Source of the DNA: Octopus vulgaris
Taxonomy: Eukaryota
Assembly: GCA_951406725.2 (NCBI GenBank)
Contig: OX597816.1
Location: forward strand, 153,636,001-153,700,000
DNA length: 64,000 nucleotides
Direction of reading: 5' to 3'
Positions within the stretch are counted from its first letter, which is position 1. The number at the start of each line of letters is the position of its first letter. The position numbers and the translations under genes are program-made. Under the pieces are notes generated by a model. It had not been told where the DNA came from, ran no database searches, and saw only the letters and a list, made by a program, of their open reading frames with translations. Shown here in pieces: positions 885 through 56,653 of the stretch.

Positions 885-3800
885 GTCATTATTCAGATTA
901 TTTCAAAATTTCTTGCCAATAGAGAAAGAACCGATTTCAAACCTAGATCCAAGGCTCCTTCATTGGAATTTCAACATTAACAACAGAGTATTTTCGTATG
1001 TATGTATGTATGTATGTATGTATGTATGTATGTATGTATGTATGTATGTATTTGTGTGTGTATGTGTGTGTGTATGTATGTATGTATGTATGTATGTATG
1101 TATGTATGTATGTATGTATGTATGTTTTATCTATGTATTCCCATGCATAGAGTTACATATCTAGACATACTCATATATATGTTTAAATGATAAACATCTG
1201 GAAAATTTTACAGAATTTTACAATTCCAGTGATGGATTGGATCTGTAGCCTTCGAATTAGCTTTCTCCTTTCTGATTTTGAGTAGCCTAATTTCTCAATA
1301 TTGGTATTTAGGCAGTGTGTTACATATCCCAGGCCCCCAATAATTACAAGTATAAATCTGAACTAGTAATCTGAATAGAGTAATTGTAGATTGCACAATA
1401 GTCCAGCATAGGTGTTCTCTTTTTCATTGATCTTTAGCTTTATGTTAACATCCGCTGGGCAGATAATTTCCACAACTGTGCACAGTTTCTCTTCTCTATC
1501 TCAAATCATTATATCAGGTCTGTTGTACTTACATTTTATTGAGGTCTTCACTGGTACTTTCCACCAGTATTCTTTTTCATTATGAGTGGCTATGGCTTCT
1601 ACCATATTGTGGGGTTTTATTTTTTTGTCCTCTGGATTATCCTTCCGACGGATTTCATTATAGAGTGTCCTAGCTACAACGACATGACTCATCGGTAGAT
1701 ATACCGTGATAACATATTCGGACAACTGCTTATAATGTGGGTAATATCTTCAGTGTGAACTCCACAAAGTCTACATTGGTTGTCACATTTTACGGCGTTT
1801 CCCTTTTATGCATCAAATACTTGGTTGATATTTCCTGTTCCTGTATTGCAAATGCTTACTCTTCAACTTAGAGGTAATGCTCCGGCTATTCATCCATGAT
1901 AAACTGCTTTGATGATCGATGTTACTATCATCACGGAGCTTTCTACTAACATATCCATTCATAGTCTTCTGCTCATACAGGCTCATCCTTTCATCTTATG
2001 ATATGTTGCGGTAGAGACGTGCGACTTCTTTGGGCATATATTCTAGGTTATCAGACAAAGAGTGTTACTTAAGGAGCTGCCTTCCCAGTCTTATGACGTT
2101 ATCAGCTTCATGTATGCAAACTTGGTTACGGGATGCACTTCGATGCTTGGTGGTTAAAAGATGTTGTCAAATGGATATGATGCGACATTCAAAGGCATTT
2201 TGGATCGATGTTAAGCCTCCATTAGGTCGAGGCGGTCTATATCACTGTTTATGTGGAAATTATGTATGCTTGCTAGTATTTTTCGGGTTTTGACATTAAT
2301 GGCTCGGATCTCATCAAGCGACTAATCAAGCAGCCTAAATGTTAGTATGAGTACTGGCACTGCAAACACATTGTGGGCCACTGCTTTATTGAATGCAGAG
2401 AGTTCTGTGGTCCAAATTTTCTTTATTCGGCTGTAATATTCTTTAGTAACACGTGTTTTGTTACAGGTGCCACTGTAAGATATATTTTCATCCACCCCTA
2501 GATACCTGTAACATTCCTCGTCAGATACAGGTGAAACAGTCAAAATATTGACAGAGATGCTACTAGTCTGGTTTATAGTTTTCCCCCTTTTCACAACCAT
2601 ATAACAACTTTTATCCTGACCTGACTCCATCTCTACATCCTTTGAGAATGTTGTAACTAGGTCAAGGCTCTTTTTCATCTCATGCATATTCTTTGCATAA
2701 AGTTTCAAGTCATCAACAAAGATACAGTGTGTAATTTTGGTCCTTCTGTTTCCTTGTGAACTAGTGAGATACCCTTCAGACTTCTTTAACATGAATGACA
2801 AGGGGTTTACAGAAAGTATAAACAACATCAGAGAGAGGCTGTCTCCTTGGAATATGCCTTTGCGATATTGAATTTTATCGGTGATAATACAGTCACTCGT
2901 TGTGTCTAATTCCAAGATGGTGGCCACGATGAAGTCAGGTCAGCTATGGCTTTTACTATTCTCACTGGAACTTTAGCAATTTGAAGGGCTACTAGCATAC
3001 ATGAGTGGGGAATAGAGTCAAAGGCTTTCATGTAATCTAGCCACATTGAAACTAGATTCCTCCTATGCTCTCGCACCTCTGACATCACAGTTTTGTTGAT
3101 TAGCACTTGCTCGGTACATCCCCATATTCCCTTCTTCCCAGCTGCTTGTTCTGCTGTGATAATGTTATTAGTTTCACTATGGTCTTGGAGGAAGAAGTTT
3201 AAACATGGTGTATATATCTTATGCATTAAGTTCTGGCATGCAATTGGCCGGTAGTTTTTTGCCATGTGGGTGGTTCTGCATTTTGGGGAACAATTTTGTC
3301 TCTGCCAGAGCTAGCCAGTGTGGTATGCTACTGTACCCAATGAAAGCTTGCTGGTACAGATTGATATGGTATGGACGGTAGAATGTTAGCTTCTTGTACC
3401 AATATCTAACAATTAAGTCTCTTCCATGTGCTTTTCCATCCTGGAGTTTCTGGATCACAGTTGCAAGAGTCTCACCATCAATGTTGTATGTCTTGGATGT
3501 AACGCAGGAGCAATAACTTTTTCGGATTTCTTCCAGCCACAGGGCATCTTGGTTAAATTCCTTCTCTTCACTCCAGATTTTCCAACAAAAGAATTCTATG
3601 TCTTCTCGTGAAGGAGCTTCCATAATATTTACTGCTCCTCCTCTCATGTCTCTGTATATTACTGCCTGGTTTCGGTTAAATTTTTGTTTATTGTTCTTCT
3701 CTCAGTTATACTCTTCTCATGTCGGAGTTTTTCACTGACAGCTTTTAGCTCTTGCTCTAGGGTAATCAGTTTGCAAGTGAGTATCCCCTTTTTGCTGTCT

Positions 3801-29844: not shown

Positions 29845-32700
29845 CAGGGGTGGGCGAACTTTTTTGATCGCGGGCCGCACAGTGCGTCCTTGGAATCTTG
29901 GCGGGCCTCATTTATAAAAATCAAGTGAAAATATTTTTAAAGGCGGTTATAGACCTATAAACACACAATTGATTGAAAGGAAATTTTGTGAAATATTCCT
30001 GGTTTAAGTGATTTAATTTATTGTTTAGAGTATCGGGTTCATGTTTTTCGGTTATTTGCTCCTATAGTTGAAATTATTACAGGAACCTCGGTTATTTTGG
30101 ACAACCTGTTATTGCTTACAAATTGCCAGGAACGGAATTTTCCTAGTAAAATCTGCACTAATTGTGGACAACTACCTCTTAATATTATGGACAACCATGA
30201 TGAATATTATACTTAAATTCTAGGATACCCAAAATAAAAGATTTTAAAGAGAAATAACAGTATATTAATATGAATTGATATCTGAAATTAGAAACGTCAC
30301 CTGAAGCATTTATTTGAAAAACAAAGCGGCTCTGTAAATAACAATGTCAATGAGAATGATGCAGCTGACTACTGTCATTTACCAGTTTGTCAAAACTAGG
30401 TGTCAAGTTGCTTGTGCTGATTCTTAACACTGACTGAAGATTTGAGTCTGTGAGAAGTGATCGATTCTTCCCCTTGTTAATTTTCATGATGGAGAAAGTC
30501 TGCTCACATATGTAAGTTGATGCAAACAACACAAACATCTTTCTTGCAAATTTTTTTAGATTTTGAAACTTTTTTGAATGTAGAGAAGCATAAAACTCGA
30601 TCAGTGGTTTACTTTCAAACATCATCTTTAAAGAATTGTCGGCTTGCAAATGAATCAGTTCTATCTGCAGTTCCTCGGTAGTTGTTTCAATGTCACAGGC
30701 AAGAGGTGAGTTAAGCAAATCGAACAGGCCTTCAACTGCCTTGAAATCAGCAAATCTTCTAATGAATTCCTTTTGTAAAGCCATCAACTGGGAACTGTAC
30801 TTGTCCGATGATTCTTGTGTAACAGACTGTGCTTTCAGCAGAGGGAAGTGAATAAATTTTTGCTCATTCAGCTGCTCGGCAAAAAGTCCAAGCTTCCATT
30901 GAAAAGCTTTCACTTCCAGGTACAATTCATGAGCAAATATACCTTTGCCTTGCAGTTTTGTGTTAAGTTCATTCAGCTTCTGCATTATGTCCACAGCAAA
31001 TGCAAAATCACAAACCCATTCGTCACTCCTCATTTCGTTTAAAAAGTCACAGGAGATGTCTTGCATTTTGAGAAACATAAGAATCTCTGCTTTGAGGTCC
31101 CATACTCTCTTAAGAACTTTTCCAATGCTTAACAAGCGGACATTTGTGTAGTACAGCACATCAGTAAAATCAGCCTCCACATCCTCCAAGAAACTTCGGA
31201 ATTGCCTGTGTTTCAATCTCCGTGATCTTATTAAATTCACTGCACGCACCACAGGTTCGATGACATGTTTGAGTTTTAAAGATGACTTACAAAGGCTTTC
31301 TTGATGTATGATGCAGTGAAAAAACAACACACTGTGTAGTGGAAAATCTTCTTTGATTTTGTCATTCAACAACTTCACAAGGCCGGAATGTTTACTGGTG
31401 AGTGAAGGAGCTCCATCGGTTGTAATGCTGGCCAGTTTATTTAAGGTTAATCCAGACCTGATTGAACTGTTAATGACACTGTTGAACAAATCTTTTCCAG
31501 TAGTAGTGTCTTTGAGAGACTCCATAGATAACAATTCCTCTGTAATTTCAAAGTTTTCGTCAATTCCTCTGATGTAGATGAGTAACTGAGCAGTATCCTG
31601 AATATCAGTACTCTCATCTAAAGCAATAGAAAACCACTGAAATCGACCACTGGCTGTTAACAGCTGTTCATGAATATTCACGGCAATTGCATCAATGCGA
31701 CGAACAATAGTTCTTCGTGACAGGGAAATGGCTTCTACTTTTGACTTAACTTCAGGAGACACAACGCTGACAGCATCAACCATACAATCTTTGATAAATT
31801 CTGCTTCTGCGCATGACTTGTTTTGCTTTGCAATTTTGTTGGCCAATATAAAACTTGCCTTTGTCGCGTTCCTTTGTAAAGAGGAAGTTTTATCAAACAC
31901 ATTTTGCTGTTGCTTCAAACGTTTAGTCAGATCATTTGCTTTCTTTTGCAGTTCTTGTTTTGATAAATTGTGTCCAAAATTGGCGTGCTTCGTTTGAAAG
32001 TGGTGTTTCAAATTATATTCCTTGAACACAGCAACTGTTTCAGAACAAATCAAACATGCAGCTTTCACTCCAACGTCGGTAAAGAAATACTTTTCAGTCC
32101 GATTTTCATTAAAAACACGACATTCCTCTTCAATTTTTCGCTTTTTAGATAGCTTCGAACAACTCATTTTGGGTAAATTTTATCAGACAACAAAAGCTAG
32201 TTTGAAACACTCGTGTCTGTACTAAATTCAAATAATCGATAGAGTGAATGATAACCAACCACAGCTCTGTGTCCAGAAAAAGCTGGTTCAAGCCCTTTTA
32301 TTAACCTGGCCGGCTTCTTCATTGGAACGAAAGGCATCGTCCATCATGCCCTCTTCACCATCTATCACGTGATTTATTTATTTGAATGTTTCAAGCATAT
32401 CGATTGGCTCGTTGTATTGCCACAATACTTGTTTCATTGTTCTATTAATTTTTGTTTTTGTAGGGTCTTACGAGAAAACACAGAAAAGATATCTTCACCC
32501 GGAAATGTGTTTTATTATGATGTCATGGGAATATTTCTCGAAATTTTTCATCGCTTCACGGTAGCTGAAAAGAGACAAACAGCGGACAATTTTGTGAAGG
32601 CGCGAAACAGTGAACTGAAATAAAATGCAAACTATTGTGAATTACCGTACAACTGAAACAGTTACGAAGTATCTGCATAGAAGTTGGGATTCATAAAAGC
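29845..32700 (-). mobile_element. hAT (Buster/Charlie, SPIN/GTF2IRD2-like) transposon with only one recognisable TIR
   Basis: TIR-like CAGGGGTGGGCGAAC at 29845, exactly where the mariner ORF is interrupted. No matching TIR seen at the other end, so the right boundary is approximate. Confidence 0.75.
30347..32167 (-). CDS. hAT transposase, 606 aa (GTF2IRD2/EPM2AIP1-like)
   Basis: Uninterrupted ORF with BED-type finger CLIC..HFQTKH, catalytic DDE in ALDESTD, TTDGA and CEQTFS, HCIIH motif and hATC dimerisation region. Confidence 0.92.
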   Translation of the reverse strand: MSCSKLSKKRKIEEECRVFNENRTEKYFFTDVGVKAACLICSETVAVFKEYNLKHHFQTKHANFGHNLSKQELQKKANDLTKRLKQQQNVFDKTSSLQRNATKASFILANKIAKQNKSCAEAEFIKDCMVDAVSVVSPEVKSKVEAISLSRRTIVRRIDAIAVNIHEQLLTASGRFQWFSIALDESTDIQDTAQLLIYIRGIDENFEITEELLSMESLKDTTTGKDLFNSVINSSIRSGLTLNKLASITTDGAPSLTSKHSGLVKLLNDKIKEDFPLHSVLFFHCIIHQESLCKSSLKLKHVIEPVVRAVNLIRSRRLKHRQFRSFLEDVEADFTDVLYYTNVRLLSIGKVLKRVWDLKAEILMFLKMQDISCDFLNEMRSDEWVCDFAFAVDIMQKLNELNTKLQGKGIFAHELYLEVKAFQWKLGLFAEQLNEQKFIHFPLLKAQSVTQESSDKYSSQLMALQKEFIRRFADFKAVEGLFDLLNSPLACDIETTTEELQIELIHLQADNSLKMMFESKPLIEFYASLHSKKFQNLKKFARKMFVLFASTYICEQTFSIMKINKGKNRSLLTDSNLQSVLRISTSNLTPSFDKLVNDSSQLHHSH

Positions 32701-37148: not shown

Positions 37149-37635
37149 CTGAAAGATTCCGATTATTTTGTGTTTAAAAATTCTCATGGAAGAAAACATT
37201 TGTGTATGCTTGAAAACTTTTGGAACCGACTTGATATCAAAATTGTTGAAAGGTACAATCCTCGTCGGATTCTTTGTTTCTGTTGAATAGGAGATGTTTC
37301 ATCCTAACTAACTCCATTTTTCTCAATCTTATTGAGTTGGGTTTAAAACCAAAACAATAATTACAAAAAGTCTAAATATGATTATTATATATATATATAT
37401 ATATATTGGTTTGTTTACACCCCCGTAACTAATAAGCGGACAGCTTTTTTCTTATTTTTATAAGAATGCCATATTAGTATGGCGATAACTATTATTTTCC
37501 GGGAACGCTGCCGCTGTTCTCTTTTAGAGAGACTTAGTTATTTTAATATTTCTATTATTGAAAACAAGTGGATGTATTCCACCGAAACTAGGTAAATAAA
37601 ACCATCGAACAGAGATTGTCGGAAGCGACACCTAC

Positions 37636-37697
37636 TGGCTGGCTACGCTGCATTGAAAAGGGGCAATACCCCGAAACGCGTCTGTAGCTGCCGGTCA
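37636..37697 (+). ncRNA. Type I hammerhead ribozyme, copy 1 (predicted cleavage after C37682)
   Basis: Helix I TGGCTGGC-tac-GCTGCA / TGTAGC-t-GCCGGTCA; core TTGAAAA (U3-A8 variant of CUGANGA); helix II GGGG-CAATA-CCCC; GAAA; palindromic helix III ACGCGT; GTC cleavage triplet. Confidence 0.88.
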
Positions 37698-37982
37698 AGT
37701 AGTGTGGAGCGACTGACCTCCCTTGTTCGAAGGTTATATGGATACAGTTTGTATATCAAATAGCTAACTTAAGGCGATGGCCTCATGGAGCTAATAAGCG
37801 GACAGCTTTTTTCTTATTTTTATAAGAATGCCATATTAGTATGGCGATAACTATTATTTTCCGGGAACGCTGCCGCTGTTCTCTTTTAGAGAGACTTAGT
37901 TATTTTAATATTTCTATTATTGAAAACAAGTGGATGTATTCCACCGAAACTAGGTAAATAAAACCATCGAACAGAGATTGTC

Positions 37983-37999
37983 GGAAGCGACACCTACTG
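37983..37999 (+). repeat. Left target-site duplication of the LINE (17 bp, GGAAGCGACACCTACTG)
   Basis: Identical to 43359-43375. Removing the LINE and one copy restores an intact 362-bp unit. Confidence 0.95.
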
Positions 38000-38216
38000 A
38001 TTTTTCCTTGGATTACGTCGGATTATTTTACGCTGTAAGCTGTTATGTTAGTTCGTTCTGTTCTGGATTTACACGTACAATTTTTGGAGTATTAACTTGT
38101 GAAACAAAGTAATTTTCGCCCTTCGGGGTAGAAAATTTCTTTTTATATATGAACTTTAATTCAGTGTGGATTTAATTTTTATCTTGTCTCTTGTGACAAG
38201 TCACTTGCATTTTATT

Positions 38217-39697
38217 ATGGATCTTGACTTAACGTCAAATTCTGATTTTCCCGAGATGGGAGAAGTTATAAAGCAAAAGGATACAAAGGAGAAACAAAGT
38301 TTTTCGGAAGCCGTTGGAGGCAATGTTATAGAACTGGAAGTAACAATGGAGGATCTCTTCAAGTTCAGAAAGTTCATACAAAGGAATGGAGAAGAAACGA
38401 GAATAATACCGCCCCCTGACACCTTACAAGCAATCCGTGAGAAGACGGTAATTTATAAGGTATATAATATTAAGGAAAAAAAGATTGCAGATGTAAGAAA
38501 TGAATTGGTAGAACGGTGCATGGCACCAATTTGGAACAAGGTTCGCTATGTTGGCCGAGGAGTGAGAAGCGCTACTATTGAAGCGCATTTCGAGTCGGCT
38601 AGCATAGCGAAGGAAATTTCAACTCAAACGTTGAAGAGTGCAGACATCCTGTTGCTGCCCACGTACTTAGGGCGCAGAACAGCTAAGATAACAATAGAGG
38701 ATATACCAACAGGTTACGATGTAATGTGGGCAGCAACAGCGGTCGTATTCGACGTAGAAGAGAAATTAAACATTTTAAACATGAGGATGAAAGAGGCAAA
38801 ATTTTGGAAAGGTCAGCAGCTTGAAATGATCGTTCAAGCTGACAATGCAACGCTGGAGAGTTTGCCAGACAGGGTCTTCGTGGGGGATGGACACACTGCG
38901 TGGGTATCGGTTGAGGGACGTAGGCCCAGATGTTTCAAATGTGGGCAGAAGGGTCACGTCCGCTCAGAGTGCAAAAGAAAAAACCCGTTAATGCCCCCAT
39001 TCAAACCGCTGTGGAGAACAAAGCAGACATCACAGCAACAACAAAAGAGAATACCCGGAAAAAGCAAAATGAAAGTCAAAAGGAGGAAAAGAAAATGAAT
39101 GGAAAACAAAGCGAAAACGAAAACGAGGTGGAAAATATTTTATCAAATGGAAAAGAACTGGAAGTAATGGAATATACGACTGTAACCAACAAAAGGAAGA
39201 AATCCAATACTCCGGACTCCCCACCCCAAACAAAAAGAAAAACAAACGCAGAAGAACAACACAAAAAAATTATCCAATCCCACCCCGCTGGCACTACTTT
39301 TGTAGGCCAGCATTTCATTAAACCCCAGCCCCCAACTTTAAAAGGATTCAAAAAAACCGATAGATGCATTGCTTATAACACAAAAAACGAGAGAGTAGTT
39401 TGGTACATAAAGGCGAAACCAAACATAAAATGTTTCAAATCATCGGAAAAAAACCCGGATTGGAGGTATGCGAAGGTTGGAGAGGAGGAATGGAAGGAGA
39501 GACTCTTCCAACTACACGTGAGGGACAACCTGATTAAAGATGTCACACAAGAGGTGATAGCTGGAAAATTGAATATTAGCCCGCCAGCCACTCCATCCCA
39601 GAGCCCGGTGGCAACGCCGGTTAAATGCCCAGCAACAACGGAGAGTGTGGGGGAGGCAGGCAGACAAAAGCTGCCATGCTCCCTCTCACAACCGTAA
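38217..39697 (+). CDS. LINE ORF1, gag-like nucleic-acid-binding protein with CCHC knuckle (one -1 frameshift near 38980)
   Basis: CFKCGQKGHVRSEC knuckle. Track ORFs 38166-39098 and 38930-39697 join through an A-run. First ATG at 38217. Confidence 0.8.
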
Positions 39698-39721
39698 GTA
39701 ACAAACTTTCTTCATTCATCG

Positions 39722-42700
39722 ATGATTAAGTTGGGCTGTATAAATGTGCGTGGAATGGGGTCGAAATGGAAACAGGCTTGCTTGCTGGACGACCTCAGGA
39801 CACACAGAATAGATGTAGCCATTGTCACCGAGTCCAAGATGAGAGGAACCCAAGCGTTCTCGCATCTTCTCAATGGTTACGAGAAATTTATTTCTCCTAG
39901 CCGAGGAGGAAGTGCAGGCGTGGCAGTCCTTATCAGGAAGAACTTGGACTTACAGGTAAGTACTGTCTTTATGGACCCAGAAGGTAGGCTGGTTGTCCTC
40001 GATGTAACTCACGTAAGTAAGCAGTCCTTCAGGTTGGTAGCTGTTTATGCTCCTAATGAGGGTAGGCAGACTGGTTTTTATCGGAACTTGAAGCACTTTC
40101 TAGTGACGTCTAAAACGGTAGTATTGGTAGGGGATTTCAACACTATCATCGATGCGCGGATAGATAGTGTGGGCTCGTCTGATAGAAGGGGGAATCCTTG
40201 CCTTAAGGGTCTACTGACGAGCTTTAATCTAGTAGATCGGTTTCGAATGGATGAGCCGAGCATTCCACAGTGGACGTGGAGTAACAATGACGGCTCACGC
40301 AGATCGTATATAGATAGGGTATTTGTTAAAGAACGAGATAGGAATAGCATTAGCTGTCCACAATTTTGTATTGTGCCTTACACGGATCACAAATTAGTGA
40401 CGTGTGAGGTACATGTAGATAAATGCCATAGACAGGGACCCGGATACTGGAAAATGAACAAGTCTATTTTGGCTTGTGAAGCTTTCCGTAACCGGATTAT
40501 GGAATTAGTCCAGAGGGCATTATGTGGAACCATCATTAATAATAGATGGTCGATCGCCCTCAAAAGAGCCATCCGTTTGGAGTCCATTAGATTTAGCAAC
40601 CAGCTAAGTTTAGATAGGACTAGAATAGAGGGCGATTTAGTTAAGAACTTAGACGAGGCAATGGGATCTGGCTGTGCATCTAGAGTGTTAGCAGAGAGAA
40701 CGATCTTGTACCGTCACCTCAATGCCAAGCATGAAGGATGTAGAGTCAGAGCTAAGCTACGTGCAGTGAAACGAGAAGGTATTAATGTTGCCGGATGGGC
40801 ACGTCGTGTGGAGAGTCAGAAGGGCAAAAAGTCCTCTATTAAGTCTTTAACTGACGAACAGGGACGCAAAATCTATGGACAGGAGGAGATACAGAAGGTC
40901 TTTCAACAGCATTTCGCTCGGTTGTTTGGGGAGGGCGATCCACTCGAGCGAGGGGAGGACTTACAGAACTTCCTAGCTGGTGGGCCTCGGCTCTCGCCAA
41001 GCAGAGCGGAACGCTGTGAAGGACCGATTACTCCCGCGGAGGTAAGAGGGGTTTTGGCTGAATGCGCCCGGGAAAAGTCGCCGGGACTGGATGGTCTGCC
41101 CTATGAGTTTTATTGTTGTATGCCGGACTTGTTCGGGGACATACTGGCAAGCGTCTACGCAAACTGGCAACAGAATGGGAGGATTCCCAGTTCTGTGAGC
41201 CGGGGAGTTGTGACGCTGATCCAGAAAGACCCGAGCAAGGGGGATAATATTAGTAATTATAGGCCCATAACTCTACTTAATGTAGAGTTAAAGATTTTGG
41301 CCAAGGTGTTAGCAGAAAGGTTGAAGGTCGTCATGGAAAAACTTGTCGGAAAGGCACAGACATGTGCAATCCCAGGCAGGTCGATCGAAGATAATCTTCA
41401 CCTTCTACGCTACACTATAGACAGGGTTGGGCAATTAGCCGGCAAAGGAGGGGCATTGGTCCATTTAGACCAAAGTAAAGCATTTGATAGGGTAGATCAT
41501 CAGTACCTGGCGACGGTTCTCGAAGCGGCTGGGCTAGGTCCTGACTTTCGCGGGTGGATATCAGCTATGTACAGCGGTATCAAGTCCACAGTCCAGATAA
41601 ACGGTTACTTAACGGAACCGTTTTCGATTAAGCGTTCAGTTCGTCAAGGATGTCCCTTTGTCCCCTCTCCTGTACGTTTTGGCTCTTGAGCCATTGCTGC
41701 GGAAGTTGGAGACGGTGAGATGCAATCCTAATGAAATCGGATGCGGTAAGTCTGTTTCTGCGTATGCGGATGACGTCACCTTCATCGTGTCCAACGAAGC
41801 ACAACTAACTCGTGTAGAAGGTGCTCTCCGAAGATACGAAGCGGTGGCTGGGGCAAAAGTTAACAAGGACAAGTCCACTGGTTTGCGCCTCGGCACCTGG
41901 AGGAACAAGCCGATATCGTCCAGTGTTGTTGGACACTGGACAGATGGTCCTGTTAAATTGCTTGGAGTTTGGTTTGGTTCAGACTCCCAGACGGAGAAAA
42001 ATTGGAGCGAGGTAGTGACCAAGGTAGAAGCCATAGTTCGGGAGTGGTCCGGAAGGCATCTTTCCTTGAAAGGGAGGGCGGAGGTGGTACAGGTGTTTAT
42101 AGCATCTGTAATCACCTATCGCCTGACTGTCGTGCCTTGCCCCGATTTGTGGCTAAGCAAGTTGGATCGACTCCTTTTCCGCTTTTTGTGGAAGGGAGGA
42201 AAGCCACTTGTAAGGCGCTCCGTGTGTTGCCAGGAACCACTAAAGGGTGGGCTGGGGATGCCTTGGTTAATGATGCGCAGGCATGCGCTGAGACTGAGAC
42301 ATCTCTGGTTTCACCTGGAAGGTGATAAGGTGTGGAGTCCGCTGGCAGATAATTTCTTCCCGCAACCGGACTCTATGGAGAGATTTAAACCCGGTTTCAT
42401 TAAAAGACGGAACCTGACTTTATGGCAGAAAGAGTGCCGACAGGCACTCTGGCTGATCCACAAGATAGGCAAAGCCGGCTGCGGGAATACCACCTCGACA
42501 TTTTATAGAAGGATGGTAGAGGCAAAAAATGACGACGTCCTAAGAGGGGCTCTGGGGTTCGATGAGGATCAACTATCCGACCTGTTTAAGAAGACTTTCA
42601 AGCCGGGGTATTTGGACAATTACCAAAAATCCCTGACTTGGCAGTGCTATAGGAATGCTCTACCTGTTCGCGATAAGTTATATAGGCATGGAATGTCAGT

Positions 42701-43121
42701 GCCACCGACATGTCCAAGATGTGGGTTGGACGATGAAACCGTCCAGCACGCTTTTGTACATTGTCAGGAGCTGTCAGGCTTAATAAGTTACGTAGAACAC
42801 GTGTTGTCGCATCTGGGACGAGTACAGCTATCGGCTGGTTCTATAATAAAGATGATACCGCCAGCTGGACTCTCAAAGGAAGGTGAGGCTTGTTTTCACT
42901 GTACGGTGGCAGTACTGAAAGAGTGTGTGTGGAGAACTAGATTGGAAGGTTTGGTGTCAGGAACCTTTGTCTCTGGATATGGTATGTTAAAATACTTCAG
43001 ATACCATCTAAAGAGCAAGATGGATTTAGAGAAGAGGAACCTGACACAGAAAAAGTATGTGAATCGATGGAAGGATGTGATAAAAAAGGTGGGTGTGAGT
43101 AACCCTGCTTGGTCATCATGA
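39722..43121 (+). CDS. LINE ORF2: AP endonuclease, reverse transcriptase and C-terminal zinc finger (one frameshift at about 41657)
   Basis: APE motifs INVRG, VGDFN, YIDRVF and TDHK. RT motifs SPGLDGL, YRPITLLN, DQSKAFDRVDH, RQGCP/LSPLLY and YADD. GGLG motif and CPRC..ETVQHAFVHC finger. Confidence 0.92.
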
Positions 43122-43373
43122 AGGGAGAAAATAGTCTCTGGGCTCTTAGGCTGTCGGGTAAGAATCCTGACTGTGATATACCTAGCTGGCCAAAATCATT
43201 TTTAATTTTAAAAAAAAAAGGAGAAAAGTAAAGTCTAGTATCATAATCAATAATCAACATATGTAAATATCAAACGAACAACGTAAACTTTTTGTAATTA
43301 TGTTTTGTATTGTAATGTACTATCTCTGTAAGATTTTTATAATCATAATAAAGATTTAGGAAGCGACACCTAC

Positions 43374-43435
43374 TGGCTGGCTACGCTGCATTGAAAAGGG
43401 GCAATACCCCGAAACGCGTCTGTAGCTGCCGGTCA
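43374..43435 (+). ncRNA. Type I hammerhead ribozyme, copy 2 (cleavage after C43420)
   Basis: Identical to copy 1. Confidence 0.88.
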
Positions 43436-43735
43436 AGTAGTGTGGAGCGACTGACCTGCCTTGTTCGAAGGTTATATGGATACAGTTTGTATATCAAATA
43501 GCTAACTTAAGGCGATGGCCTCATGGAGCTAATAAGCGGACAGCTTTTTTCTTATTTTTATAAGAATGCCATATTAGTATGGCGATAACTATTATTTTCC
43601 GGGAACGCTGCCACTGTTCTCTTTTAGAGAGACTTAGTTATTTTAATATTTCTATTATTGAAAACAAGTGGATGTATTCCACCGAAACTAGGTAAATAAA
43701 ACCATCGAACAGAGATTGTCGGAAGCGACACCTAC

Positions 43736-43797
43736 TGGCTGGCTACGCTGCATTGAAAAGGGGCAATACCCCGAAACGCGTCTGTAGCTGCCGGTCA
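43736..43797 (+). ncRNA. Type I hammerhead ribozyme, copy 3 (cleavage after C43782)
   Basis: Identical to copy 1. Confidence 0.88.
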
Positions 43798-44096
43798 AGT
43801 AGTGTGGAGCGACTGACCTCCTTGTTCGAAGGTTATATGGATACAGTTTGTGTATCAAATAGCTAACTTAAGGCGATGGCCTCATGGAGCTAATAAGCGG
43901 ACAGCTTTTTTCTTATTTTTATAAGAATGCCATATTAGTATGGCGATAACTATTATTTTCCGGGAACGCTGCCGCTGTTCTCTTTTAGAGAGACTTAGTT
44001 ATTTTAATATTTCTATTATTGAAAACAAGTGGATGTATTCCACCGAAACTAGGTAAATAAAACCATCGAACAGAGATTGTCGGAAGCGACACCTAC

Positions 44097-44158
44097 TGGC
44101 TGGCTACGCTGCATTGAAAAGGGGCAATACCCCGAAACGCGTCTGTAGCTGCCGGTCA
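44097..44158 (+). ncRNA. Type I hammerhead ribozyme, copy 4 (cleavage after C44143)
   Basis: Identical to copy 1. Confidence 0.88.
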
Positions 44159-45899
44159 AGTAGTGTGGAGCGACTGACCTCCCTTGTTCGAAGGTTATAT
44201 GGATACAGTTTGTGTATCAAATAGCTAACTTAAGGCGATGGCCTCATGGAGCTAATAAGCGGACAGCTTTTTTCTTATTTTTATAAGAATGCCATATTAG
44301 TATGGCGATAACTATTATTTTCCGGGAACGCTGCCGCTGTTCTCTTTTAGAGAGACTTAGTTATTTTAATATTTCTATTATGTATATATTTATATTTATA
44401 CGGAAGTGGATGGCAGAATCAGTACGGCATAAAACAAGATATTTGTTATTTGATTACCTCTTTTAACGTTTTTCGAAATTACAATCCTGTCCAAGTCGAC
44501 ATTACTTTTCATTCTTGGAGTTCAGTAAAACAAGCGCTACCCTAGAAAACGGTACAGCAGCAGTCAGATGATTAAAATCAGAAATAACAGTTTACGTCTA
44601 ACACTTCGTGGTGAAAGATATAATGAGAGCAAGTTGGTCGATGTTTATCAAATTATGACTACATTCCAGTAGGTAAAAGAATGTATATATCTACACCTAA
44701 TTCAGAGAGCATTGACAAGTATAGCAAATCTGAAGATAGTCTTAGGAGATTCTGATCTCTTTAGTCTGATTCCTATTAACATAAGGTTATTATCACTTGC
44801 TTTAACTCAGGGCAATCTTTACAATAAGACTAAGTATAAGATACATATATATGATAAGGTAAACTCTCAGACAGTTTCAATAATCCCCATCGCCAATTCT
44901 CACACATATATTGACGAGCCAACGATGGATTTTCTGAGTAGTCGCTCGGCTCACTAGAAATAGCAGCCAATTCTCTCTCAAAACAAACTTTACAGTTTAA
45001 TTAAAGAAAGAAGGCATTATATAATTTGATCCTATATACTTCTAGAAAACAGGGCGATTGCCACTGGAATGCTCTGAATCATAATTTTGTGAGATCAGGT
45101 AGCAACACTAAATATTGCTTTCTTTTGACAAGGCCTTTAATTAAAAGAATGAAAATGAACGATGTTGTAATATTCATGTACGATATCAATACCTTCAAAG
45201 TTAAAGTAACAAAGAGATCGAACACAGCTAAACGCTGGAAAAATGGTTGAAATGGAGTTCAATAAGCAGATACATATTCCTAAGATGTATGCCATCCAGA
45301 ACATGAATGTGTATGCGCGCGCGTGTGATAGTGAGTGAGTGTAGTGATTATATGAATACTAATTTATGACCTGTTCAGAAGTTAACGGTAATAATTTTTG
45401 TCATTAAGATGTAACCCAGTCTTAGTAGTGCATTATCAGCTGTATAACGTATATATAGGCATCTTGGGAAATAATGGAAAGTGGTAAGGCCTGATATTTA
45501 TAAAAAGAGAAACAGCTTTTAGCAGTTATTGTTGTTCAACTCCGTATTATAGAAAGTGAACAAAACTTCAGCCACCATTTTGTTTTCATATATAATAATC
45601 TGGTGTCGCATTGTCCAATTTATCGTTCTTGTTTTAAAACTGTTGGATCTGATTTGAGGGTGATTTGGTAACAGTTTTTAATAAATCGAGCAACAGCGTA
45701 GATACTCCGAGCAATCTTTTCTTTGAATGATGCAGTGGGTATGAGTGACATTCAGATGAGTTTAACTTAGATATGTAATCAGACAGTTTATCAGTTAAGG
45801 AATCCGTCAGCTGCCTGCCTAAATGATGAATTATCCGCCTGTATGTCCGTCAGTCGGATATTCTGTAAGTACGTCGGATAAACACCGCCTAGATTACAT

Positions 45900-54728: not shown

Positions 54729-56653
54729 TTATTTTGTAATGTTTGTGTGGTTTTGTCGATTATAATGATCTTTGTACTTACATGAAACGTTTAGAGTGAC
54801 GTCAGTCAAAACAAATTTTGTCTTTGAAACGAGTTCTATGTGAATTCGATTTACTATTGACAAGTTCCCGAAAAGTTTGATTCTATTCACACCTTCGATT
54901 AAAAAATACGTATTGTTAAGTATTAAGTCTGATTTAGAGACTTTAATGAAGAAGGTTACATCGTCTGTTTTATTTATTTCAAAATGGAAAATAATATCTT
55001 GTGGATTAGTTATTTTAATTTGGACGGTACAGTAATTTCTAGAACTTGCTTGAATCATTATAGCAGATATGCAAAATGAAGGATTGTATGAAAAAAGAGG
55101 TGTTTTACCGTCACCAACTTTTATATTCGAAAGTGTTTTATTTGTATTCAATAAATAAATATCGTTCGTCAGTATACAAGTTTTGACACCCACCTGTTGA
55201 AAAGCCATTCTAAAAGAGTTAACATCAAGACCAATATAATAAGCAGCGCGAATAACATCACAAGCTCCGGTTGAAAAATCCGATGTTGGATGCCAATACA
55301 AACGATTGGCTAACATAAATGCGTGATAGGCATCTTTGATTGGAATTCTATAATCCTGGACCACGTAGTAGAATGCTTTGTTATAAATACCACAACCAAA
55401 ATGAGGGTCTAAGCTTTCGGTGTAATTATCGTAATGGTTCACAGACAGTTTATCCTTTGAGGGATCATCCAAAGATCTAAATCCTCTATCATCAGATTTT
55501 GTTATATACTTCCCTATTGACCAGTCATTTTGTCCGAGATAAGCTTCCAGAGTTTCACCTGTTATGTCAGAGAATGATTCGTCCATAGAGCCAGACTGTC
55601 CGAAATTCAAAAGACAGGAATGTTGTTCGGTGAAGCCATGTGCCACTTCATGACCTATGATATCAGCCACTGTATAAGGATAAGAAAACTCTCCTCCGTT
55701 ACCAAAATTGCATTGCTTTCCGTCCCAGAATGCATTGTCAATATCATAATATACTCCAATTATTAATTTGTTCCGTAAAATTTTAGTCCCGTACCAGGAA
55801 AGAAACATATCGAAAAGAGCACTGCCGTAATACAGAGCATCACGGGCAGGAGAATTAGCTCCATTAACTGAATCATCAAAATTATCGAAGCATTTATAGC
55901 TGACTACATTGTCAGTATCCCTATAGGTTGGACGTCCACTAAAATTGAGAACTTTTACATATTGGTTCTCCAGAAAACAGGTATTCCCTTGATTTCTCTT
56001 TACAAAAATTTTCCGATTGTCTCTGCTGTAAACAAACGTTCCACTTTTCTCATTACCACCGTGACCAGTGAGTAAATGGTTAGCAAAAGTATCAAGTTTC
56101 GACCATTGTAACAAAATATCTCCGGTATGAGCGCTTATAAGAAACGCCGGTCGCTTAACCACTTCATCAGTATATATTAGGTAATCAATTTCGTAGATCA
56201 AACTTACATCGCCGAAATCATCAACGTAAACTTTTCTGTGCGAATTATAGTTGTAAATGTTCTTTTTAAACTGACCGTGCCCAGCCGAGATGATTGCAAT
56301 ATCTAAAGCTTCTTCCTTGGTTAATGTCGCCGATAATAATTTATCCCAGTGATGATAGGTACTCAGCCCCTGGATAACAAAACCGCTTGCCAAACCGGTT
56401 AGTTCACCATTAGATTCGATTACGACCGAAAGTGTTCCATCGTAGATAGGAATATCTTTGTACAATTGTCGCAACTTTAAGATCCGAAGTCCTTGGCTCG
56501 TGTTAAATTGATCAATAACATCGAAACTGTTCGGTGGCACAAGACCAAAGAGATCTGTGAGTGCAGTTGCTTTATTCAGCCGGTAATTGTATTGTAATTG
56601 TTCTTTAACATTAATACGGTTCAAACGTCGCCCAACGGGTCTCGGCATAAGAA
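54729..56653 (-). CDS. Peptidase family M4 (thermolysin/pseudolysin/vibriolysin-like) zinc metalloprotease, main exon: FTP and PepSY propeptide, catalytic domain, about 150-aa C-terminal extension
   Basis: Motifs GHGGNEKSG, VNGANSP, DNAFWDG, HEVAH (HExxH), GSMDESFSD (third Zn ligand), DPH..GIYNKAFY and ANRLYW. Strong acceptor TTTTAATTCTTTATTTTGTCTCTACAG ends at 56654. Confidence 0.93.

Follow-up and report, generated by a model that had tools for sequence, protein, structure and literature searches.

Keno, a long interspersed nuclear element (LINE), inserts inside U2 and not at the U2 start, and the insertion of Dictyostelium TRE5-A and yeast Ty3, elements found at Pol III starts, is set by distance from a transcription-factor site, not by sequence. 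LINEs of the Tx1 clade (Tx1L in Tx1D, Keno in U2, Tx1-Mar, and satellite-, U5- and 5S-targeting elements) combine an APE endonuclease with a reverse transcriptase (RT), occupy a fixed site in a multicopy repeat or mobile element, form tandems separated by a target-site duplication (TSD) and switch targets, as described in PMC4494074 and PMC4640811. As of 2015, the elements named as targeting small nuclear RNA (snRNA) genes in the accessible part of PMC4640811 were limited to Keno, Utopia, Dada-U1 and Dada-U6. R2 is co-transcribed with its host gene, released by a ribozyme, and carries host sequence on an RNA with uniform 5' junctions (PMC3774820). Animal non-LTR retrozymes and newt satellite 2 are short tandem repeats with type I hammerhead ribozymes and a link to Penelope elements (PMC7229834 and bioRxiv 10.64898/2026.07.22.740005). 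Here we analyse 64,000 nt of Octopus vulgaris DNA (contig OX597816.1, positions 153,636,001 to 153,700,000; hereafter the window), in which a tail-less, Tx1-like LINE interrupts an array of such hammerhead repeats. We propose, with a probability of roughly 0.6, that this LINE repeatedly inserts at one base of the dispersed repeat and uses the repeat's promoter and ribozyme to define the ends of its RNA.

The octopus LINE resembles the Tx1 clade in its enzymes, fixed site, tandems and target switching. It differs in its hosts, which include hammerhead retrozymes and nucleotide 1 of U1 and U2, apparently tied together by position relative to a promoter motif and not by sequence. R2 has its own 5' HDV-like ribozyme, whereas here the 3' end would be made by a host hammerhead and a promoter likely sets the 5' end. 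The first-pass annotation of this DNA drew a parallel with R2; no element-encoded 5' HDV-like ribozyme and no Rfam ribozyme match is found in the window, the ribozyme here lying in the host unit. TRE5-A and Ty3 use TFIIIB at tRNA genes, whereas the anchor proposed here is an snRNA-type promoter, to which tethering is putative. A LINE parasite of retrozymes is not described in the accessible parts of PMC7229834 or bioRxiv 10.64898/2026.07.22.740005. The first-pass annotation knew of no Tx1-retrozyme pairing, and the literature searched likewise holds no LINE-retrozyme pairing and no LINE targeting an snRNA start, with Repbase and subscription papers outside its scope; Kojima supplements may list such targets.

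Structure of the interrupted repeat array

The LINE and its surroundings comprise the following features.

37430-44381, forward: family A hammerhead repeat array (non-LTR retrozyme, 361/362-bp units), interrupted by the LINE
37564-37577, forward: proximal sequence element (PSE)-like motif of the upstream unit, same motif as at 37926-37939; putative function, predicted start at 37621
37640-37693, forward: upstream type I hammerhead motif, U3-A8 core at 37653-37659, predicted cut after 37682
37926-37939, forward: PSE-like motif 57 nt 5' of the insertion site, with AGTGGATGTA common to U2 promoters at equal distance
37983-37999, forward: 17-bp target duplication, 5' copy; its first base, 37983, is the predicted transcription start
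37983-43420, forward: predicted working RNA of 5,438 nt, in which the LINE is flanked by host sequence of 17 nt (5') and 62 nt (3')
38000-43358, forward: full-length Tx1-like LINE without a poly(A) tail, 5,359 bp
38217-39697, forward: open reading frame (ORF) 1 with CCHC zinc knuckle, broken by a 1-nt indel at about 38972; an intact copy encodes 493 aa
39722-43121, forward: ORF2 with APE endonuclease, RT and zf-RVT; 1-nt indel near 41657; 1,132 aa in an intact copy
43347-43352, forward: AATAAA directly 5' of the LINE 3' end
43359-43375, forward: 3' copy of the 17-bp target duplication, which rebuilds the 5' arm of the ribozyme-bearing hairpin
43378-43431, forward: downstream type I hammerhead motif, core at 43391-43397, predicted cut after 43420, the likely 3' end of the LINE RNA
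43421-44143, forward: two whole units without a LINE, each with a hammerhead (predicted cuts after 43782 and 44143) that may act as a dimer partner

The LINE lies on the same strand as the hammerhead repeats. In the window, GAAACGCGUC ends at 37682, 43420, 43782 and 44143, so that successive ends lie 5738, 362 and 361 nt apart, and the array stops at 44381, the major fixed 3' end of family A. The geometry first reported for the locus is confirmed: the predicted cuts after 37682 and 43420 lie 5738 nt apart, 317 nt before and 62 nt after the LINE; intact hammerheads in one orientation stand on both sides, with stems I and II predicted at a probability of 0.94-1.0; the TSD is 17 bp; and the LINE has AATAAA but no poly(A) tail.

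Family A consists of dispersed, non-coding, short tandem units of the 150-450 bp class with one type I hammerhead each, as in non-LTR retrozymes. The motif has the YUGANRA core, GAAA, NUH cut site and stems I and II of a type I hammerhead in minimal form: stem I is GCUGCA/UGUAGC, the core UUGAAAA, stem II 4 bp with GAAA, the cut follows GUC, U3-A8 replaces C3-G8, and helix III is a minimal, palindromic ACGCGU. One unit variant has A-U in place of a G-C pair in stem II. U3-A8 is found in repeat A and in Penelope elements, and C3-G8 in three further hammerhead repeats, B, C and D. An Rfam search of the window gave 0 ribozyme matches, the hammerhead motif not being scored by Rfam.

By Pfam, ORF1 is of the CCHC type and ORF2 contains an APE endonuclease, an RT and a C-terminal zinc region, which is the Tx1-type architecture. 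The best PDB match is L1 ORF2p (4e-66), with R2 at 4e-23, and the nearest named protein comes from an argonaut. No named Tx1 element was among the matches of the protein search and Atlas, and the label "Tx1-like" rests on architecture. The window LINE had been described as a possibly autonomous element encoding ORF1, endonuclease and RT; with frameshifts called relative to a natural intact copy, 1-nt indels interrupt both ORFs and the copy, as assembled, codes neither of them whole. Both are open in 7 of 16 full-length copies elsewhere in the genome.

One insertion base at many loci

Of the 28 exact LINE 3' ends in the 2.8-Gb genome, 21 abut one and the same target base. They are distributed over 16 loci and 10 contigs, with 0 in the control, and the genome has 1,116 empty target sites. 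All 21 copies of at least 98% identity lie on the repeat A target. Site specificity at one repeat base is near certain, and the LINE-retrozyme pairing is systematic, truncated copies included. Full-length copies with a single exact 5' junction account for 16 of the 21 on-target copies and none of the 7 off-target copies (Fisher p=0.0007), a comparison in which the 7 off-target copies are older and all 5'-truncated.

Fresh targeting is shown by truncated copies and by tandems separated by the TSD alone. L044 is a young 5'-truncated LINE with TSD within an older unit variant, the L049 copy is only 69 bp, and contig C2 has a truncated on-target copy as well as three LINE-TSD-LINE joints that lack an intervening ribozyme; a joint of this type recurs in a contig of run X18. 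In the same C2 cluster (L055-L058), the truncated upstream copy equals the third copy at all informative sites. The match may be a sign of new copies being added at the promoter-side duplication, gene conversion being the alternative.

These loci also bear on an account in which the LINE entered the retrozyme a few times and Penelope machinery then spread LINE-plus-unit composites. At L042 an array inversion joint lies inside the LINE with 7-nt microhomology, at L049 the LINE end is in both arms, L043 and L049 share a unit variant found in none of 40 sampled arrays, and at 7 of 8 loci young LINEs sit in young units. Four of the 16 LINE-bearing arrays have no empty site; the other 12, however, do have them, and array-private variants flank the LINE locally. 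A sister relationship of the L043 and L049 LINEs was not supported (they are 1.2% apart and unresolved as sisters), and the truncated copies with TSD and TSD-only tandems require fresh targeting in any case. We regard spread chiefly as a passenger as improbable, while L042 and L049 suggest that a LINE-unit composite is occasionally carried by Penelope machinery, which is likely under any of these accounts.

Related LINEs in other repeats and at U1 and U2

Sister LINEs about 80-95% identical to the window element occur in related hammerhead repeats or at nucleotide 1 of U1 and U2. L189, L192 and L194 (83-85% identical) lie in repeat B, each with its own 16-17-bp duplication, and further sisters lie in repeat C. 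Homology among repeats A, B and C is distant, at 64-69% over 88-175 nt; in B and C the hammerhead core lies 26-33 nt, and the predicted cut 58-67 nt, 3' of the insertion point.

The U1-associated sisters are 92-95% identical. The LINE 3' end at L059 adjoins nucleotide 1 of an Rfam-confirmed U1, and U1 nucleotides 1-17 precede two LINE 5' ends, one of them (L062) at a non-U1 site, which indicates that the RNA of that copy began at U1 +1. At L205 the LINE 3' end adjoins an Rfam-confirmed U2 start, in a copy that groups with the B clade. In a midpoint-rooted tree of 426 columns, from which 4 loci with no usable match were dropped, family A copies nest within U1-type copies (96/90 and 100/99), so that targets have switched more than once. 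In the endonuclease loop aligned with the L1 target-probing hairpin, L062 and 3 of the 4 B copies do not differ from the A copies, although their targets do.

A junction-pattern count for further families was uninformative, with 46 matches against 45 in the control. By eye, 29 of the 46 belong to recurring sequences, with 18 in B, 8 in C and 3 in D; when 6 of these loci were compared with the window LINE by BLAST, 3 matched, all C, and D and one B-like locus did not. Repeat D (L211, L212) is a fourth hammerhead repeat, located 3' of a LINE-like end; with BLAST of that element giving no match to the window LINE, D is only a lead as a host.

Two observations concern the history of the lineage at U1. 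At least 7 fragments of related LINEs are stacked beside a U1 gene cluster (G000:C18:49003901-49023000; L179-L180). The exact U1 5' 13-mer occurs in the 3' untranslated region of older LINE relatives (L069:6356, L070:6317), perhaps as a relic of an earlier U1 target, and is decayed in the window LINE at about 43178-43192.

A promoter-like motif at a fixed distance

An ATCAGTG-type motif lies at -57 to -60 in U1 and U2 genes, and the same motif is present in repeats B and C. Repeat A carries a variant that shares ten bases with U2 at equal distance to the insertion point. With a PSE matrix built from 10 U1/U2 upstream sequences, the site at -60 to -56 ranks first in all 6 repeat upstreams and ninth or worse in 8 control flanks; the score is reached by 13, 0, 1, 32, 7 and 4 of 5,000 shuffles, respectively. 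For newt satellite 2, a promoter of the snRNA type is reported in work cited by PMC2220036. From this motif and its spacing, it is likely that the LINE insertion base is the start of an snRNA-type promoter within the repeat.

Several observations weigh against this. The family A motif is the degenerate one: when a longer matrix is allowed to match anywhere, 600 of 1,000 shuffles reach its score, and 41, 153 and 456 of 1,000 reach those of B and C. The motif position window was set after the match had been seen by eye, and the matches are not independent since families A-C are related. L059 and L205 are truncated and have no promoter upstream; the evidence at U1 and U2 consists of junction halves, an intact promoter-TSD-LINE-TSD-U1 locus not having been found. 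Older off-target LINE copies lie at TATAC-like sites without the promoter motif, which points to some sequence preference of the endonuclease.

That preference is what an ordinary sequence-specific Tx1 element would show: its endonuclease would read the target DNA and have drifted among similar multicopy targets, with promoter and ribozyme incidental or acting as an expression filter. Nicking by the Tx1L endonuclease in vitro is specific for its target, target switching is frequent in Tx1 families, most targets here start AT(C/A) and the older off-target sites are TATAC-like, and the A-type and L062 endonucleases are distinguished at 11 of 245 residues. The A target, however, starts GGAAG/AGAAG, unlike the others, yet holds all 21 of the copies of at least 98% identity; the endonuclease hairpin loop is unchanged across targets, and the distance of the PSE-like motif is constant across unrelated hosts. 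Sequence reading as the whole explanation therefore seems unlikely, though it deserves more weight than the other alternatives considered here. As to how the site is found, we lean modestly towards position-based homing at the promoter start over endonuclease reading of the sequence.

Predicted RNA ends and possible ribozyme action

A second question is how the LINE RNA acquires its ends. It is plausible, from the motif's position and fold, that the host hammerhead gives the tail-less RNA its 3' end. The palindromic minimal helix III would be expected to cleave as a ribozyme dimer. Against efficient cleavage, minimal hammerheads are often slow, with 8 of 9 Xenopus dimers failing to cleave, and an anole Penelope ribozyme required protein for activity. 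The genomic trace of cleavage is also weak: 4 of 69 repeat arms begin within unit positions 1-6 (uncorrected p=0.03). Among LINE-bearing arrays, 4 arm starts appeared to lie at the cut site; three were query-edge artefacts and only L043 stands.

In contigs of four runs the repeat unit is deeper than the LINE; these contigs came from runs without an RNA record, are blind to ends, strand and circles, and do not distinguish a circle joint from a tandem joint. In two runs guessed to be RNA, no LINE-host junction is bridged in the contigs listed. One contig (X16) extends 30 letters beyond the LINE end, the bar being 31.

The first-pass annotation had proposed that the cut-to-cut RNA of 5,738 nt could circularise and act as an autonomous, self-propagating retrozyme that also provides RT for the repeats. 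The cut-to-cut geometry is real: 7 of 12 single full-length loci are flanked by two hammerheads, and two of these, L046 and L054, have intact ORFs. RtcB ligates retrozyme monomers in vitro, and one of four tandem LINE spacings, 5,735 bp on C2, has the composite period. The other three spacings, however, are 5,373-5,374 bp, LINE plus TSD, and hold no ribozyme between copies. The genome search suggested for composites did find the pairing at 16 loci, but no rolling-circle arrays of composite period, and 12 of 16 arrays hold empty sites. Nor is a 5' end at 37683 supported for the working RNA, as 5 of the 12 single full-length loci lack an upstream hammerhead in their own arm and 3 of these 5 have intact ORFs. 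In the window itself the copy is frameshifted, the upstream ribozyme is without a near dimer partner upstream, and a 5' end made by cutting would have no cap. Finally, the repeats have Penelope-type ends. An autonomous circular retrozyme is thus very improbable. What survives is the defined RNA as a possible by-product: read-through from the upstream unit, which the PSE-like motif at 37564-37577 could drive, would also yield 5,738 nt from cut to cut, which RtcB could circularise. As the working RNA it fits poorly, since the start suggested by the PSE-like motif at 37926-37939 is 37983.

Mobility of the host repeats

The ends of the repeat arms were mapped in 40 arrays (L079-L118) that are consecutive along contig C1. 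Of 73 arms, 63 end at unit position 170-178 or 233-239, about 63 nt apart, and inverted arms usually end one at each of these two fixed positions, mostly inside (TA)n. Family A thus shows the two fixed 3' ends, inverted arms and AT-rich targets of a Penelope-mobilised repeat. Two reverse-transcription starts, with a "tail", and AT-rich cutting have been shown for a Penelope element (PMC11167929), and a preprint derives animal retrozymes from such elements (bioRxiv 10.64898/2026.07.22.740005). Because these ends are unlike the 17-bp TSD of the LINE, the repeats were probably not moved by the LINE, and the earlier suggestion that it supplies their RT is not supported. It is likely, judging from the arm ends, that the hammerhead repeats were themselves moved by Penelope-type elements.

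In the same arrays, 12 of 69 arm starts cluster at unit position 38-46, just 3' of the long ribozyme hairpin (p about 1e-7). This pile-up may reflect an RT stall or a second RNA end.

The U3-A8 hammerhead is present at 19 of 30 GIY-YIG loci, and the genome has 781-aa RT-GIY-YIG ORFs. No pseudo-long terminal repeat homology to the repeat unit was found in the 30 GIY-YIG loci (of 6,136 candidates) or in L181, and in the same loci no autonomous partner of the repeats was found, the hammerhead variant alone being shared. L181-L186 and L195 are Penelope-type elements of young age whose ORFs are intact, at a length of 781 aa in five of the loci; they have U3-A8 hammerheads and, where both ends are present, terminal repeats of 456-505 bp, and two of them have an extra upstream open frame of 479 aa. 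An older form of repeat A (L137:1-292, 80% identity) shares an ACAUGU palindrome with the Penelope hammerheads.

Other features of the window

Three further features of the window lie on the reverse strand. Thermolysin-type M4 peptidases are a family best known from bacteria, and an uninterrupted 639-aa ORF at 54729-56648 has M4 peptidase domains of this type and an FTP propeptide; it is possibly an old gene transfer. An open 606-aa frame of a hAT-type transposase with a Spin-doc zinc finger lies at 30347-32167. Fragments of a second non-LTR RT, unrelated to the LINE at 38000-43358, lie at 2322-3647.

Proposed mechanism and significance

Insertion at one promoter-associated base would work as follows. 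The snRNA-type promoter inside the host repeat would start RNA synthesis at the duplication (37983), and as a Pol II transcript this RNA would be capped. The transcript would cross the LINE, and the downstream hammerhead, probably as a dimer, would cut it at 43420 to give the 5,438-nt RNA. The host sequence at its two ends, 17 nt and 62 nt long, could pair with the target once nicked, in the manner of R2; such annealing would explain both the missing tail and the precise full-length junctions. The LINE protein may reach the site by tethering to the snRNA initiation complex, aided by pairing of RNA and target.

More tentatively, the lineage as a whole may dock by position on snRNA-type initiation complexes and hop among U1, U2 and several retrozymes. 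It would then be a promoterless, tail-less parasite of a Penelope parasite, with a host promoter setting the 5' end of its RNA and a host hammerhead the 3' end, and it would also mark the retrozyme promoter and start to the base.

In addition to documenting a single locus, these results extend the target range of APE-type LINEs to ribozyme-bearing retrozymes and to the U1 and U2 start. They suggest that what these targets have in common is where they lie relative to an snRNA-type promoter, and not their sequence. Target switching by target-specific LINEs with an unchanged endonuclease loop thereby becomes testable, and young intact copies (7 of 16) exist for assays. The proposal also predicts the mode of transcription of invertebrate retrozymes, and the host hammerhead may represent a poly(A)-free 3' end for the RNA of a coding retroelement.

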